Below, piece by piece: positions 9,737 through 14,674 of a stretch of DNA of 27,324 bases. Position 1 is the stretch's first letter. Each line of letters starts with the position of its first letter. The DNA lies in assembly GCA_964351045.1 (NCBI GenBank), contig CAYGMA010000002.1:1-27324 (forward strand), written 5' to 3'. The position numbers and the translations under genes were made by a program. This DNA is from an uncultured Holosporaceae bacterium (GTDB lineage: Bacteria > Pseudomonadota > Alphaproteobacteria > UBA7879). The notes beneath the pieces were generated by a model, which worked only from the letters and a program-made list of their open reading frames with translations, had not been told where the DNA came from and did no database searches.

Positions 9737-9765
9737 TTGCGTTAGCGCTTTTTTTTAGCTAATTA
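9737..9765 (+). promoter_or_regulatory. Probable sigma70 promoter of the dusB operon
   Basis: TTGCGT (9737-9742), 17 nt, TAATTA (9760-9765) in a GCTAAT context. A -10 lacking the -7T is common in Alphaproteobacteria. Confidence 0.45.
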
Positions 9766-9782
9766 TGCCTAATATTTAAGCA
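9766..9782. promoter_or_regulatory. Fis/NtrC-type operator (near-palindrome)
   Basis: TGCCTAATATTTAAGCA has the TGC-N11-GCA NtrC-box geometry, and its inner 15-mer GCCTAATATTTAAGC fits the Fis consensus GNNYRNNWNNYRNNC. It lies just after the proposed -10 and 10 nt before the dusB ATG. Confidence 0.55.
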
Positions 9783-9792
9783 AACTAGAAAA

Positions 9793-10788
9793 ATGAAGCC
9801 CATTCAAATTGGATCGATAACCATTGATAATCCGGTGATTTTAGCGCCCATGTCGGGTGTGACGGATTTGCCATATCGTCGGTTGGTGAAAGAGAGCGGT
9901 GTTGGGCTGGTTGTTTCTGAGATGATTGCTAGTGCGGCTATGGTACGTGAAACACGTCAATCTTTGTTGATGGCGAAAAGCGAGCCTGAGCAATATCCAA
10001 TGGCGGTTCAGCTTGCTGGATGTGATCCTGAAATTATGGCAGAGGCAGCTAAGTTGAATGTGGATCGTGGGGCGGAAATTATTGATATTAATATGGGCTG
10101 CCCCGTTAAAAAAGTTGTGAATGGATTTGCTGGTTCTGCGTTGATGAAAGATGAAGCGCATGCGGCTAAAATTCTTGAAGCCACTGTGAAGGCGGTTAAC
10201 GTTCCTGTGACATTAAAAATGAGAACAGGATGGAATGCAGAAAACCGAAATGCGCCGCAGTTGGCGAAGATTGCTGAAGACTTAGGTATTCAGATGATCA
10301 CAGTCCATGGAAGAACCCGAGCACAGCTTTATAATGGATCTGCGGATTGGGCGTTTGTTCGCAACGTGAAGGAAGCGGTTTCTATTCCTGTGATTGTGAA
10401 TGGAGATATAAAATCTCCAGAGGATGCACAAATGGCTTTAGAGCTTTCTGGAGCTGATGGCATTATGGTTGGGCGTGCGACTTATGGGCGTCCGTGGCTC
10501 TTATCCCAATTGAGCACGTTTTTGATGGAGGGAAAACGTGTTGAAGAGCCCTCTTTAGAAACACGTATTTCTGTGATGCAGCGACATATGGAAGATATGA
10601 TGCAACATTATGGAGAACAAACGGCAGTGAAGTTGGTGAGAAAGCATTTGGGATGGTACAGCAAAGGATTGCCGTGCTCTGCTGATTTTCGACTCGCTGT
10701 GAACACGTCTCAAACGTACGAGGGGATTAAAAACCTTATACAGTCTTTTTTCTACCCTCACATTAACAAAGAAATTTATGCTGCATAA
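9793..10788 (+). CDS. dusB: tRNA-dihydrouridine synthase B (NifR3 family)
   Basis: [34 protein letters not shown] (catalytic Cys), [31 protein letters not shown]. Confidence 0.96.
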
Positions 10789-10804
10789 AGGATTTTAAAA
10801 CAGA

Positions 10805-11080
10805 ATGAAAAAAGAAACAGTTTCCATCTCTTTGCCAAAAGAATTCACTGAAAATGGAATTGGACATTTGGTCACGGCTTATTTAGATGGTTTTGTTATG
10901 AATCATCCCAACTTTTGTGAAATGGGAAACTTACATCGCATTATTGTGGATGAGGTTGAAAAGGCAGTGATTATCAAAGTTTTAGAAAAAACAAATGGAA
11001 ATCAGTCTAAGGCGGCTCAAATTTTAGGGGTTAACCGAAACACCTTGCGAAAAAAACTCCTTGCACATAAAATTGCGTAA
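10805..11080 (+). CDS. Stand-alone Fis-type HTH protein corresponding to the NtrC C-terminal dimerisation/DNA-binding domain
   Basis: 91 aa; LHRIIVDEVEKAVIIKVLEKTNGNQSKAAQILGVNRNTLRKKL is an HTH_8/Fis signature. No receiver or AAA+ domain. RBS-like AAGGA lies in the 16-nt gap after the dusB stop. Confidence 0.88.
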   Translation: MKKETVSISLPKEFTENGIGHLVTAYLDGFVMNHPNFCEMGNLHRIIVDEVEKAVIIKVLEKTNGNQSKAAQILGVNRNTLRKKLLAHKIA

Positions 11081-11090
11081 CAACTAAGTT

Positions 11091-13277
11091 TTGCGTGTGG
11101 CTACTTCTTCTTTATCAGACATTTACGGAAAGTCGTTTTTTGGGAGATGGTTTGTTCTCTTTGCCTTGTGTCTTGTTGCTGTTTTAGGAGCGGTTACGTA
11201 CTACTTTTTTTTGACATTGGATATGTCTCAGACGGCACAGCCCTCTAAAGCTATTAACACAATTTTAGTGGTGGATAGCGCTGTTTTATTGGTGCTTTCT
11301 GGTATTATTATCTTTAGAATCATTCAAGTGTGGCTGCGCTTTCGCAGGAAGGTAAGTGAGGCTCGGCTTCATTTCAAAATTATGCTGCTTTTTGGAATTG
11401 TCTCTATTGTGCCGGCAATTGTGATGATGGCGTTTTCCACGCTCTTTTTTCATTATGGAATGCAATCTTGGTTTAACGATAAAGTGCAAGGAGCACTGAA
11501 TGAGTCTTTGAGTGTTGCGCGTTCGTATCTTAAAGAGCATGAACAGATTATGGAGCGTGATACACTTATTTTGGCGAAAGATTTGAGCAATAACCCAGAC
11601 GTTTTTGAGTTGCCTAAAGCAGAACGCAATCACCGTTTTAACTTTATGGCTTCAACCATTCGAGGGATGCGTGAAGCAGTTGTATTTAATCAGGAAAATA
11701 AAATTATCGCGCGGTCAGATTTAACCTTTGCCATTGGGTTTGAGTATATTCCTCAGAAAATTTTTGATCAGGTTAAAAATGCATCTCCTGAAACACGTGT
11801 CGTTATTTTGCGGAGTGAGTCAGACGATCGACTAAGGGCGTTGGTGAAAATTAATACGCCGGAGCCGTTGTATTTATATGTTGGGCGGTTTGTGGATCCA
11901 AAGGTTCTAACGTTTCTTCATGAAGCAGAACATAACGTTGAAGACTATGGTAAACTTGCTGTTTCTAGGCTGCAGTTTGAAGTGACATTCACATTGGTTT
12001 TTGTGGTTGTGTCTTTGCTTGTTTTATTAACCGCGATTCTCTTTGGGCTGCGGTTTGCGAATCGGTTGCTTTTGCCGTTGGAAGAGCTTTCGATGGCAGC
12101 GCAACGTATGGCGTCGGGAGACTTAACAGCGCGTGTTGAAGAGAATAAAAAAGGGGATGAGATTAACGCGCTTAAAAGAACCTTTAATAAAATGGCCAGT
12201 CAAATTGAAAATCAACGGCACGATCTTTTAAGCGTGAATGAGGAGTTGATAGATCGGCGTCACTTTATTGAATCGGTTTTATCAAACATTTCTTCAGCCG
12301 TTATTAATGTGAACGCTAAGAAACAGATCTTGTTTGCCAATGAATCGTCTAAGAAAATTTTCAACAAAGACTTAACGAAATCTTTAGGGCAATCCTTGGT
12401 TAAAGTTGCTCCCTTTTTTAGGGATATTTTAACCGGAGAAAAGCCGCCATTGAAATCGCTTCATAGAAAGGTTTTGATTGAGGGAAAAGAGCATATTCTC
12501 TCTATTAAGATTTTAGAAGATATTGAAGAGGGACATATAGAAGGATATTTTATTACCGTTGAAGATGTGACAGAACTTCTCTCTGTTCAGAAGAAAGCGG
12601 CTTGGGCGGATGTGGCGCGCCAAATTGCCCATGAAATTAAGAACCCTTTGACGCCTATACAGCTTGCGACAGAACGGCTTAAGAAAAAATTTATTGGGCA
12701 AATCGACTCTGGGAAGGAGCAGTTCTCAGATTATATTGAGACGATCATGCGGTATGTTCAGCAAATCCAGAGCCTTATTAATGCGTTTAGTGATTTTGCT
12801 CGTATGCCTACCCCTAAAATGGAAAAGGTTGATTTCTTCTCCCTTGTGCATAAGGCGCTGAGTTTGCAGAAAACAGCGTATCCTTCTATTGAGTTTAAGG
12901 AGGAAAAACAGGATGAACAAGCTGTGTTTATCTTTGTCGATTCAAACCTTATTGTGCAGGCTTTAACAAATATTTTAAAGAATGCGATTGAGGCGGTGAT
13001 GGATCAGAAGAACCCAATGATTACGGTTTCTTCCTGGGTGGAGGATAAACAATGCATTGTGCGTGTTTCTGATAATGGACCTGGGTTTCCTGAAAACATT
13101 GACGCTGAAGACCTTTTTGATCCCTATATTACGTATAGTAAAGAGGGGACAGGTTTAGGGCTTGGAATTGTTCGAAATATTATTGAAAACCACAACGGCC
13201 AGGTGCGCTTGGTTCAGAAAAAAGGAAAAGGGGCTGTTGTTGAGATTGTTTTACCGATCTTGGATAAGAAGTCATAG
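11091..13277 (+). CDS. ntrY: Sensor histidine kinase NtrY (TM, periplasmic domain, HAMP, PAS, HisKA, HATPase)
   Basis: AAWADVARQIAHEIKNPLTPIQL (H-box), QALTNILKNAIEA (N-box), VSDNGPGFP, GTGLGLGIV. Position upstream of ntrX. TTG start. Confidence 0.92.
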   Translation: MRVATSSLSDIYGKSFFGRWFVLFALCLVAVLGAVTYYFFLTLDMSQTAQPSKAINTILVVDSAVLLVLSGIIIFRIIQVWLRFRRKVSEARLHFKIMLLFGIVSIVPAIVMMAFSTLFFHYGMQSWFNDKVQGALNESLSVARSYLKEHEQIMERDTLILAKDLSNNPDVFELPKAERNHRFNFMASTIRGMREAVVFNQENKIIARSDLTFAIGFEYIPQKIFDQVKNASPETRVVILRSESDDRLRALVKINTPEPLYLYVGRFVDPKVLTFLHEAEHNVEDYGKLAVSRLQFEVTFTLVFVVVSLLVLLTAILFGLRFANRLLLPLEELSMAAQRMASGDLTARVEENKKGDEINALKRTFNKMASQIENQRHDLLSVNEELIDRRHFIESVLSNISSAVINVNAKKQILFANESSKKIFNKDLTKSLGQSLVKVAPFFRDILTGEKPPLKSLHRKVLIEGKEHILSIKILEDIEEGHIEGYFITVEDVTELLSVQKKAAWADVARQIAHEIKNPLTPIQLATERLKKKFIGQIDSGKEQFSDYIETIMRYVQQIQSLINAFSDFARMPTPKMEKVDFFSLVHKALSLQKTAYPSIEFKEEKQDEQAVFIFVDSNLIVQALTNILKNAIEAVMDQKNPMITVSSWVEDKQCIVRVSDNGPGFPENIDAEDLFDPYITYSKEGTGLGLGIVRNIIENHNGQVRLVQKKGKGAVVEIVLPILDKKS

Positions 13278-13294
13278 AAAAATAGGGGGGTGTG

Positions 13295-14674
13295 ATGAAA
13301 GCGAAAATTCTTGTTGTTGATGATCAAGCTGATATCAGAACCCTTTTAGGGGAGTTCTTAGAAGACGAGGGATACACTGTTTTGGTTGCGTCAGATGGTC
13401 AGGAGGCTTTGAAGCTCATTGAGTATGAACAGCCAGGCATTGTTCTTTTGGATATTTGGCTCAATGACAAGCGGTTTGATGGTATTGCCATTTTAGACAT
13501 TATCCGCGAGAAATTTCCGGATGTTGTGACGATCATGATGAGTGGCCATGGAACCATTGAAACCGCTATTGCGACGTTAAAAAAAGGAGCGTTTGATTTT
13601 ATTGAGAAACCGTTCCAAAGTGAGCGGCTTTCTAGCATGCTTGAAAAAGCAAAACAAGTAATTGATCTGCGCAAGGAGCTTTCTCTGTTAAAGGGGAAGG
13701 TTGAACATCAAAGTGATTTTATTGGCTCTTCTAAAAGTACAGAAGCTGTGCGAAAAGAGCTCTTAAAACTAGCTCATACAAATGCACGGGTGATGTTGGT
13801 TGGGCCTTCAGGTGTTGGTAAAACCCAGGCAGCGCGATTTATTCATGTGAACTCTGAGCGCGCCAAGATGCCTTTTGTGGAAGTTGATTGTGCAGTTTTA
13901 GATGACAAAACTTTTTCAGAAGCTTTTTTTGGGGCTGAGGCAGAAAGCGCTGAAGGATACCCCGTTGTGAAAGTGGGGCTTTTAGAGCAAGCTAATAAAG
14001 GAACATTGGTTTTAGAAAATGTTCAAGATTTGCCGAAAGCTGTTTCTTCAAAATTGGCACATGTGTTGCACTCAAAAAAATTTCAACGCATTGGTGGCGA
14101 GCGTTCTTATGATATTGATGTTCGGTTTTTATCAACACTCGTTCCTCTTTCAAAGGTGGGCACTCAACCGTCTCACCAAATTCGGGAAGATCTTTATCAC
14201 CGACTGGCTGTTGCATCCATTGAGATCCCTCCTTTGTCTAACCGGGTGGATGATATTATGGATCTTGTGCGTTACTTTTATGAGGTGTTTTCAGGCAAAA
14301 GCAAGGTGATTGTTTCACAAGAAGCCAAGTTTATTTTGATGAACTATAGCTGGCCCGGAAATGTGAGGCAGTTAAAAAATGTGGTTGAATGGATATCCAT
14401 TGTTTTAAAAGAGGGAGGAACTGAAATTCTTCCTAAATATTTACCTCGAGACTTGAAAGAACCTTCTGAAAATAGCCCTGCTCAAGAGGGTGGGGATTTA
14501 TTTTTAGGTCCTTTAAAAGAAGCCCGTGAGCGGTTTGAAAAAGCGTATATCGAATTTCATTTGCACTGTTCTCAAGGAAATATCAAAAAAACAGCAGAAG
14601 AAATTGGTATGGAAAGAACGGCGTTGCACAGAAAAATTAAAAACTTAGGACTGGACAGCTTAGACGGTTCTTAG
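13295..14674 (+). CDS. ntrX: Response regulator NtrX (receiver, AAA+-like domain, Fis-type HTH)
   Basis: ILVVDD, VLLDIWL, MMSGHGTIETA, FIEKPF in the receiver; WPGNVRQLKNVVE; C-terminal GNIKKTAEEIGMERTALHRKIK, typical of NtrX. ATG 13295 or GTG 13292. Confidence 0.93.
   Translation: MKAKILVVDDQADIRTLLGEFLEDEGYTVLVASDGQEALKLIEYEQPGIVLLDIWLNDKRFDGIAILDIIREKFPDVVTIMMSGHGTIETAIATLKKGAFDFIEKPFQSERLSSMLEKAKQVIDLRKELSLLKGKVEHQSDFIGSSKSTEAVRKELLKLAHTNARVMLVGPSGVGKTQAARFIHVNSERAKMPFVEVDCAVLDDKTFSEAFFGAEAESAEGYPVVKVGLLEQANKGTLVLENVQDLPKAVSSKLAHVLHSKKFQRIGGERSYDIDVRFLSTLVPLSKVGTQPSHQIREDLYHRLAVASIEIPPLSNRVDDIMDLVRYFYEVFSGKSKVIVSQEAKFILMNYSWPGNVRQLKNVVEWISIVLKEGGTEILPKYLPRDLKEPSENSPAQEGGDLFLGPLKEARERFEKAYIEFHLHCSQGNIKKTAEEIGMERTALHRKIKNLGLDSLDGS

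Follow-up and report, generated by a model that had tools for sequence, protein, structure and literature searches.

The window, by which we mean the whole 27,324-nt stretch of DNA analysed here, is read from the forward strand of contig CAYGMA010000002.1 of an uncultured Holosporaceae bacterium (UBA7879; GCA_964351045.1, an assembly of 1.12 Mb in 186 contigs, 92.8% complete). Our subject is a small gene in it, at 10805-11080 on the plus strand (ATG 10805, TAA 11078-11080), whose 91-aa product, a putative DNA-binding protein with an HTH_8 domain, resembles the C-terminal (Fis-type) part of NtrC standing alone. The gene follows dusB (nifR3; 9793-10788, ATG 9793, TAA 10786-10788), the first gene of the operon, which encodes a 331-aa tRNA dihydrouridine synthase B (TIGR00737, 412 bits against a cut-off of 293; Pfam Dus, 340 bits), and precedes the genes for the sensor histidine kinase NtrY (11091-13277, TTG start, 728 aa; Pfam NtrY_N, HAMP, HisKA and HATPase_c) and the response regulator NtrX (13292-14674, 460 aa; NF051870 NtrX, 454 bits, under the cut-off of 600), all on the plus strand. 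Profile matches place, 3' of ntrX and in this order, genes for a class IV aminotransferase (dat) and a HAD hydrolase, then hfq and hflX. Sixteen nucleotides, with AAGGA among them, separate the dusB stop from the start of the small gene, and 10 nt separate the stop of the latter from the ntrY start. No terminator is predicted between dusB and the small gene, which is probably co-translated with dusB; dusB, the small gene, ntrY and ntrX are presumably co-transcribed.

The original prediction, made from the sequence alone, was that NtrBC had been reduced at this locus to a free Fis-like protein; it gave the gene order and gaps just described, an intact small gene with its ATG and AAGGA, and no trace of ntrB or of an AAA+ domain beside dusB. 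The coordinates agree with it throughout: the gap 3' of dusB holds no such remnant and has no room for one. HTH_8 domains were found in only two proteins of the whole assembly, the 91-aa protein and NtrX, and Sigma54_activat, the AAA+ domain, gave a single strong match, NtrX (129 bits), besides two weak ones on other contigs (24.8 and 16.6 bits). NtrX itself, as translated, has no GAFTGA loop, in a genome where sigma-54 was not found.

HTH_8 (PF02954; 60.1 bits, threshold 22) occupies residues 48-85 of the small protein and is the sole domain found in it: neither a receiver, nor a phospho-acceptor Asp, nor an AAA+ domain was detected in the 91 residues. For comparison we used a profile and alignment, 89 positions long, built from 19 small proteins of the window's order, a Holosporales-type group of 18 genomes of 0.9-1.5 Mb in three families. 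The C-terminal ends of 20 full-length alphaproteobacterial NtrCs match this profile at 91-98 bits over positions 5-86 of the 89; E. coli Fis (81 bits) and betaproteobacterial Fis (71-78 bits) match over its full length, and E. coli NtrC (31 bits) and NtrX (16-19 bits) only in the helix-turn-helix (HTH). One canonical NtrC, 485 aa long, has the end of its AAA+ lid at residue 397 and matches the family profile over 396-482; since the match starts where the lid ends, the 91-aa protein corresponds to the portion of NtrC that follows the ATPase. TIGR01818, the model of NtrC as a whole, accordingly recognises it only over model positions 391-460, at 40 bits against a cut-off of 559. The recognition helix of the small protein, NRNTLRKK, is carried by 19 of the 20 alphaproteobacterial NtrC C-terminal domains sampled, as against NRGTLRKK in E. 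coli Fis, which upholds its earlier designation as the alphaproteobacterial NtrC form; with the end-to-end profile match and the domain boundary, the NtrC derivation of a Fis-like protein in a dusB...ntrYX setting stands.

The predicted structure is that of Fis. An AlphaFold2 model built on a 99-sequence alignment (mean predicted local distance difference test score 86.8) has four helices, A (18-33), B (43-62), C (67-74) and D (78-87), the four-helix pattern that had been read from the primary sequence; residues 1-11 are disordered or of low confidence, with no strand predicted. The top 30 Foldseek matches in the PDB are all Fis, E. coli Fis chains giving target-normalised template-modelling scores mostly of 0.61-0.81 and root-mean-square deviations mostly of 1.6-2.5 Å, and a search of solved structures with the family profile also ranks Fis first (82 bits, Fis residues 17-97). 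The residues invariant in the family alignment, E52, N66, Q67, A71, L74, N77, R78, N79, T80, L81 and K84, align with DNA-contact residues of Fis. Position by position, N66, Q67, S68, K69, N77, R78, T80, R82, K83 and K84 align with Fis N73, Q74, T75, R76, N84, R85, T87, R89, K90 and K91; within the family these contact positions are conserved or conservatively replaced, and mostly invariant. The N-terminal 10-25 residues vary in length and sequence among the 19 relatives. At residue A54 (10964-10966) the window's genus has Ala or Val, most relatives have Pro, and Fis has the kink proline of its helix B, P61; the structure of Fis P61A, 1FIP, is among the best structural matches of the 91-aa protein.

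The rest of the nitrogen circuit is missing as well. Neither the DNA-binding nor the core-binding domain of sigma-54 (rpoN) was found in this genome, nor did any of the order's 18 genomes yield sigma-54; P-II (glnB) and glutamine synthetase (GlnA) were not found in the 92.8%-complete assembly. The check for ntrB, full-length ntrC, rpoN and glnB that had been proposed thus yields no sigma-54, no P-II and no strong Sigma54_activat match other than NtrX. With no receiver or AAA+ domain, and in an order in which sigma-54 is not detected, phosphorylation and activation of sigma-54 are impossible for the 91-aa protein, as had been supposed.

Of the order's 18 genomes, 16 have the arrangement dusB-small gene-ntrY, with ntrY in syntenic position, and all three families are represented. 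The small gene is intact in 18 loci, encodes 84-107 aa, and starts either in a 4-nt overlap with dusB or less than 35 nt past the dusB stop. In two genomes (98% and 92% complete) no match to the small protein was found, which may reflect loss inside the order or an assembly gap. The same layout is seen on two independent metagenomic contigs from other samples, and one small protein of the order has an identical counterpart in a metagenome-assembled genome labelled 'Holosporaceae bacterium'. The window's DusB is 77% identical to those of relatives in its genus, the closest named DusB being that of Ca. Bealeia paramacronuclearis, and the window sequence itself is present in DNA metagenomes from biofloc, marine and aquatic samples.

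Synonymous sites are saturated in most pairs of small genes, with dS either undefined or greater than 1.3, which leaves two pairs, L116-L117 and L014-L016, usable for estimating the ratio of nonsynonymous to synonymous substitution rates (dN/dS). One of them gives 0.19-0.25 (dS 0.40-0.47) and the other 0.08-0.16 (dS 0.34-0.57); the value for dusB is 0.03 in the pair with the lower ratio and about 0.02-0.03 in other pairs. The small gene is under purifying selection. Decay in close relatives with dN/dS near 1, or an assembly error that had removed ntrBC, had been named as observations that would undo the proposal: what we see is a gene intact across the order at dN/dS of 0.08-0.25, in a layout that recurs in the other genomes and on the two independent contigs. 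Judged on its sequence, the 91-aa gene is a free-standing, selected NtrC C-terminal domain and not a functional NtrC; among HTH_8 proteins of the Fis/NtrC kind we class its product as a variant of its own, the stand-alone NtrC C-terminal domain.

Stand-alone forms extend well beyond the order. A survey of 401 genomes of the class, one of them unpublished and underlying none of our claims, found full-length NtrC in most, and, in many other small-genome families, frames of 93-136 aa that match equally strongly. Twenty such short-form loci were fetched: thirteen read dusB-short gene-ntrY-ntrX, four have dusB and the short gene without ntrYX, and one holds a 172-aa intermediate. The four lineages with dusB and a short HTH gene and no ntrY-ntrX (L074, L077, L086 and L092) imply that the small gene outlives the whole ntr block. 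Among 20 loci with full-length NtrC, the order is in most cases the canonical dusB-ntrB-ntrC-ntrY-ntrX. Short forms also occur in Ca. Paracaedimonas acanthamoebae, Ca. Odyssella acanthamoebae and Paracaedibacteraceae. Ten of these gene models were checked, and all are in public records, mostly as 'hypothetical protein'; annotations now in use for such genes are 'hypothetical protein', 'Fis family regulator' and 'GlnG', and the Ca. Paracaedimonas acanthamoebae protein is named 'Putative Fis-like DNA-binding protein' in UniRef. Survey of the dusB-ntrY interval, which had been suggested, thus finds the short form throughout the three families of the order and in many others. The deletion that removed ntrB, and with it the parts of ntrC for the receiver and AAA+ domains, is ancient; it extends across the order and is seen in many further families of Alphaproteobacteria. 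The clean internal deletion that had been proposed to recreate a dusB-fis layout therefore holds for the architecture, in its ntrYX context, and fails as an event peculiar to this organism.

Two of the loci fetched are irregular. The 172-aa frame (L090:3488-4003, minus strand) comprises the AAA+ lid and HTH_8 and lies 5' of ntrYX; relatives in the same family have full-length NtrC, and JGI data contain a similar 172-aa protein. The L090 frame may mark a second way in which NtrC collapsed, or else a frameshift. In L091, a 67%-complete assembly, dusB-ntrB-ntrC-ntrY is in several frame-shifted pieces, more likely through sequencing error than decay.

Upstream of dusB lies a candidate operator of NtrC type, the 17-bp palindrome TGCCTAATATTTAAGCA (9766-9782), that is, TGC-N11-GCA with an AT-rich core, 10 nt 5' of the dusB ATG. 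It abuts the -10-like hexamer of a putative sigma-70-type promoter on the plus strand (9737-9765), recognised by inspection and by comparison with relatives, which consists of a -35-like TTGCGT (9737-9742), a 17-nt spacer and a weak -10-like TAATTA (9760-9765); in five relatives (L116, L014, L016, L009 and L010) a CCTTGCG element and, about 17 nt on, a TAA-type hexamer likewise lie 5' of the box. This -35/-10-like pair would be the promoter of the operon. Scored with a position weight matrix (PWM), the box at 9766-9782 is the top site genome-wide (24.7 bits, runner-up 19.1), and a degenerate form of the pattern has three matches in the window against 0.49 expected. Under a strict definition, which requires an AT-rich core in TGC-N11-GCA and a position between -130 and +40 relative to the dusB start (chance expectation a few hundredths per locus), the box is present at 12 of 15 loci of the order and at 7 of 15 canonical dusB-ntrBC loci, six more of which have a one-mismatch site at the same place, about -25. 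Other short-form loci have it in 5 of 18 cases, and beta- and gammaproteobacterial dusB-fis loci in 1 of 10. By these strict counts, gene and operator are co-conserved across the order.

This box has a precedent in Sinorhizobium meliloti, where NtrC has TGC-N11-GCA as its motif and binds PdusB in gel-shift assays, and where dusB-ntrBC is negatively autoregulated; the unphosphorylated protein also binds DNA (PMC10746234). Across Proteobacteria, autoregulation of NtrC is part of the regulon's conserved core (PMC5343134). In Caulobacter, NtrC acts as both repressor and activator at sigma-70 promoters (10.1101/2023.06.06.543975).

The reading that we favour, and consider fairly probable, is that an old deletion left the C-terminal domain of NtrC, a dimer of which binds the ancestral operator and constitutively represses its own dusB-X-ntrYX operon, X being the small gene. 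The deletion would have taken ntrB together with the receiver and AAA+ parts of ntrC out of dusB-ntrB-ntrC-ntrY-ntrX. The bare domain would form a Fis-type four-helix homodimer, and the dimer would bind the TGC-N11-GCA box at 9766-9782; since this operator abuts the dusB -10 region, bound protein would repress dusB-X-ntrY-ntrX. Repression by occlusion requires just a DNA-binding dimer, and here it would be constitutive, needing no NtrB input, phosphorylation, ATP or sigma-54, its sign being deduced from the position of the site. A few further genomic sites may be bound: the protein probably has such sites, or a more general nucleoid role.

Several observations weigh against autorepression as proposed. 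The consensus promoter scan makes no call at the weak hexamers upstream of dusB, and none of the listed sequencing runs that hold window DNA is an RNA run. PWM scores of the orthologous sites are partly circular, because the matrix was made from those sites, though the strict pattern count is not affected. The gene persists where no strict box lies near dusB, namely at three of the order's 15 loci and in most of the remaining short-form lineages, from which it follows that autoregulation is not the sole selected function. PWM sites of at least 14 bits number 14 genome-wide against 2-6 in shuffled sequence, a modest enrichment, and lie mostly inside open reading frames. The additional sites are too weak for calling a regulon. 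The next-best intergenic boxes lie 56 nt 5' of sua5/tsaC, a gene of t6A tRNA modification (C174:101-117), and about 95 nt 5' of secB (C25:2912-2928).

A related possibility, unlikely but overlapping with the favoured reading, is that the protein is a global, Fis-like nucleoid-associated protein, abundant and DNA-bending, with hundreds of degenerate AT-rich sites of which the dusB box is one. Such a role would be consistent with the predicted Fis fold and Fis DNA-contact residues, with the dusB-fis type of operon and its tight coupling to dusB, and with retention of the gene in lineages that have no dusB box. In Caulobacter, moreover, the ChIP-seq motif of NtrC is Fis-like, and NtrC has sites in overlap with those of GapR, a nucleoid protein (10.1101/2023.06.06.543975). 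Scores point the same way: when the window's genus is left out of the profiles, its proteins score 75-80 bits against Fis and 60-72 bits against full-length NtrC C-terminal domains. The genome, however, already has three genes of the HU/IHF family, the N-terminal arm of Fis is absent, and a specific 17-bp palindrome with conserved TGC and GCA ends is typical of a dedicated operator.

That the 91-aa protein instead acts with NtrY and NtrX, for instance as a partner of NtrX or its competitor at shared sites, and so tunes that two-component system, is decidedly improbable. It would suit the position of the gene directly 5' of ntrYX, in the order and at the 13 short-form loci noted above, and the fact that, besides the 91-aa protein itself, NtrX alone in the genome was found to have an HTH_8 domain. 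The four lineages that keep dusB and the small gene with no ntrYX downstream speak against it, as does the lack of a receiver domain for NtrY to act upon; and the C-terminal domain of NtrX, at 16-19 bits, is so distant that heterodimers or shared sites are unlikely.

The relation to Fis was examined in a tree of the domain computed without distant outgroups. Rooting with E. coli NtrC and other enhancer-binding-protein tails was dropped, their branches being 6-10 substitutions per site long and misplaced. All 19 Fis sequences fall on one side of a single branch (support 98/97) and every alphaproteobacterial sequence on the other, and the window protein groups with its own genus (99/98). DusB gives a concordant picture, with the window inside its own order and alphaproteobacteria split from beta- and gammaproteobacteria (100/99); the backbone of the DusB tree is unresolved. 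In the same profile comparison, the proteins of the window's genus score 94-97 bits against the rest of the order and 82-91 bits against the other alphaproteobacterial short forms. They thus fit their order better than they fit Fis and are placed outside the Fis clade, which makes recent transfer of fis into the lineage unlikely; nesting within gammaproteobacterial Fis, held out earlier as the mark of such a transfer, is not seen.

A true fis acquired from a beta- or gammaproteobacterium in place of the resident gene is for these reasons very improbable, the more so as the window protein has NRNTLRKK, the locus keeps its alpha-type NtrC operator and ntrYX neighbours, and the GC content of the gene (0.357) lies inside the range of its neighbours (0.35-0.47). 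What can be said for acquisition is that the nearest short proteins by word search are Fis of Taylorella and Paenalcaligenes (about 50% identity over 59-71% of the query), and that a tree forcing the window's genus group beside Fis fits marginally better. These two Fis proteins share the run EKTNGNQSKA.QILG.NR.TLRKKLL with the window protein (locus L026 is the dusB-fis of Taylorella asinigenitalis), and this accounts for their top rank in word-based searches; the shared run probably reflects parallel change, not close kinship. That the gene is a decaying ntrC remnant or an assembly artefact, as might be thought from a reduced genome in which the classical NtrC targets glnA and glnB are not found, and from a small protein that evolves faster than DusB (69% against 84% identity to the nearest relative), is refuted by intact copies in 18 loci of three families and on two independent contigs, by dN/dS, by invariant DNA-contact residues and by the operator conserved along with the gene.

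A separate question is whether Fis arose from proteins such as this one. On the evidence of the trees and scores it seems doubtful, though conceivable, that beta- and gammaproteobacterial Fis descends from, or is sister to, an alphaproteobacterial stand-alone NtrC C-terminal domain, truncation having come first and transfer or divergence later. Approximately unbiased (AU) tests do not reject trees that join Fis either with the small proteins of the order (p-AU 0.41) or with the group formed by the window's genus (p-AU 0.54), and so leave undecided a choice that the original prediction had also left open, between an independent origin and a relative of the Fis ancestor. The better fit of the window protein to Fis than to full-length NtrC does not settle it, as the same picture would arise by long-branch attraction, or if the proteins had drifted in parallel once the AAA+ domain was lost. 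The domain trees admit more than one attachment point for Fis, and DusB, in addition, separates the alphaproteobacteria cleanly from the beta- and gammaproteobacteria. Within the Alphaproteobacteria, two short-form groups nest among full-length NtrCs in the domain tree (94/90 and 94/92), which hints at more than one truncation, and a topology with all short forms as one clade is not rejected (AU test, p 0.12); the trees suggest several truncation origins.

Set beside Fis (E. coli b3260-b3261; PDB 1ETY, 3IV5), the window protein is of similar size (91 against 98 aa), has the same predicted A-D fold and aligned contact positions, and is encoded directly 3' of dusB in one operon, several relatives of the window having a 4-nt overlap there. 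The differences are as plain. Fis has an N-terminal beta-hairpin arm, which it needs for stimulation of the Hin and Gin invertases, and the disordered residues 1-11 of the 91-aa protein form no conserved counterpart. The latter fails to reach the NCBIfam cut-offs for Fis (NF001659, 51.2 bits against 99; NF002517, 57.6 against 122), is excluded from the beta/gamma Fis clade by the branch described above, and has N in place of both Fis G86 and R71, a residue of the Fis activation patch. Its gene, unlike fis, is followed by ntrYX, and its operon is headed by an NtrC-type operator of which the strict form is rare at beta/gamma dusB-fis loci.

With alphaproteobacterial NtrC the 91-aa protein shares homology throughout, from where the AAA+ lid stops through to the C-terminus, as well as the NRNTLRKK helix, the slot between dusB and ntrY, and the TGC-N11-GCA box 5' of dusB. 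NtrC, however, has a receiver, an AAA+ domain and a partner, NtrB; the 91-aa protein lacks these and hence any signal input, its genome has neither glnA nor glnB among the genes found, rpoN is found nowhere in the order, and in the window's genus its sequence has drifted from the C-terminal domains of full-length NtrC, as the 60-72-bit scores indicate. The NtrCs of Caulobacter and Rhodobacter work at sigma-70 promoters without GAFTGA and independently of sigma-54, as we propose for the 91-aa protein; unlike it, they retain a receiver and an AAA+ domain and still need phosphorylation or ATP. NinH of phage lambda (PMC7166090) is a small HTH_8-type DNA binder too, but is phage-borne and has no link to dusB.

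Morett and Bork (1998), as cited in later papers, proposed that Fis derived from the C-terminal domain of an alphaproteobacterial NtrC, and the same papers describe Fis as mainly restricted to proteobacteria and of ancestral alphaproteobacterial NtrC origin (PMC7962754, PMC7482072). Their key observation is reproduced by our scores, in which Fis is much nearer to alphaproteobacterial than to enterobacterial NtrC. The window shows, in an alphaproteobacterium, the intermediate that the proposal predicts, with a free NtrC C-terminal domain encoded directly after dusB; Morett and Bork inferred the event, and in the accounts of their work that we found, living alphaproteobacterial stand-alone forms are not described. 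A study of SAR11 records the absence of ntrB and ntrC from intracellular parasites and Pelagibacterales, with no mention of a retained DNA-binding remnant (PMC3870248), and a recent review of Holosporales mentions neither two-component systems nor Fis. Full-text literature searches found no description of these stand-alone NtrC C-terminal proteins. What is new is their order-wide conservation with dN/dS estimates, the exact domain boundary, the failure to detect sigma-54 anywhere in the order, and an NtrC operator shared with canonical dusB-ntrBC loci.

Fis is among the best-studied of bacterial chromatin proteins, and to our knowledge its proposed origin from NtrC has so far been based on sequence similarity alone. 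The alphaproteobacterial short genes are natural replicates of the proposed step in the origin of Fis, with the ancestral operon and operator still in place, and through them one can test directly how an enhancer-binding protein that depends on a signal may turn into a free DNA-binding protein. 'Loss of NtrBC' in streamlined and intracellular alphaproteobacteria accordingly needs rereading: the DNA-binding module and its putative autoregulatory site stay under selection when the nitrogen circuit is gone. If Fis did come from an ancestor of this kind, that ancestor would have its closest living relatives in the proteins of these small-genome alphaproteobacteria.

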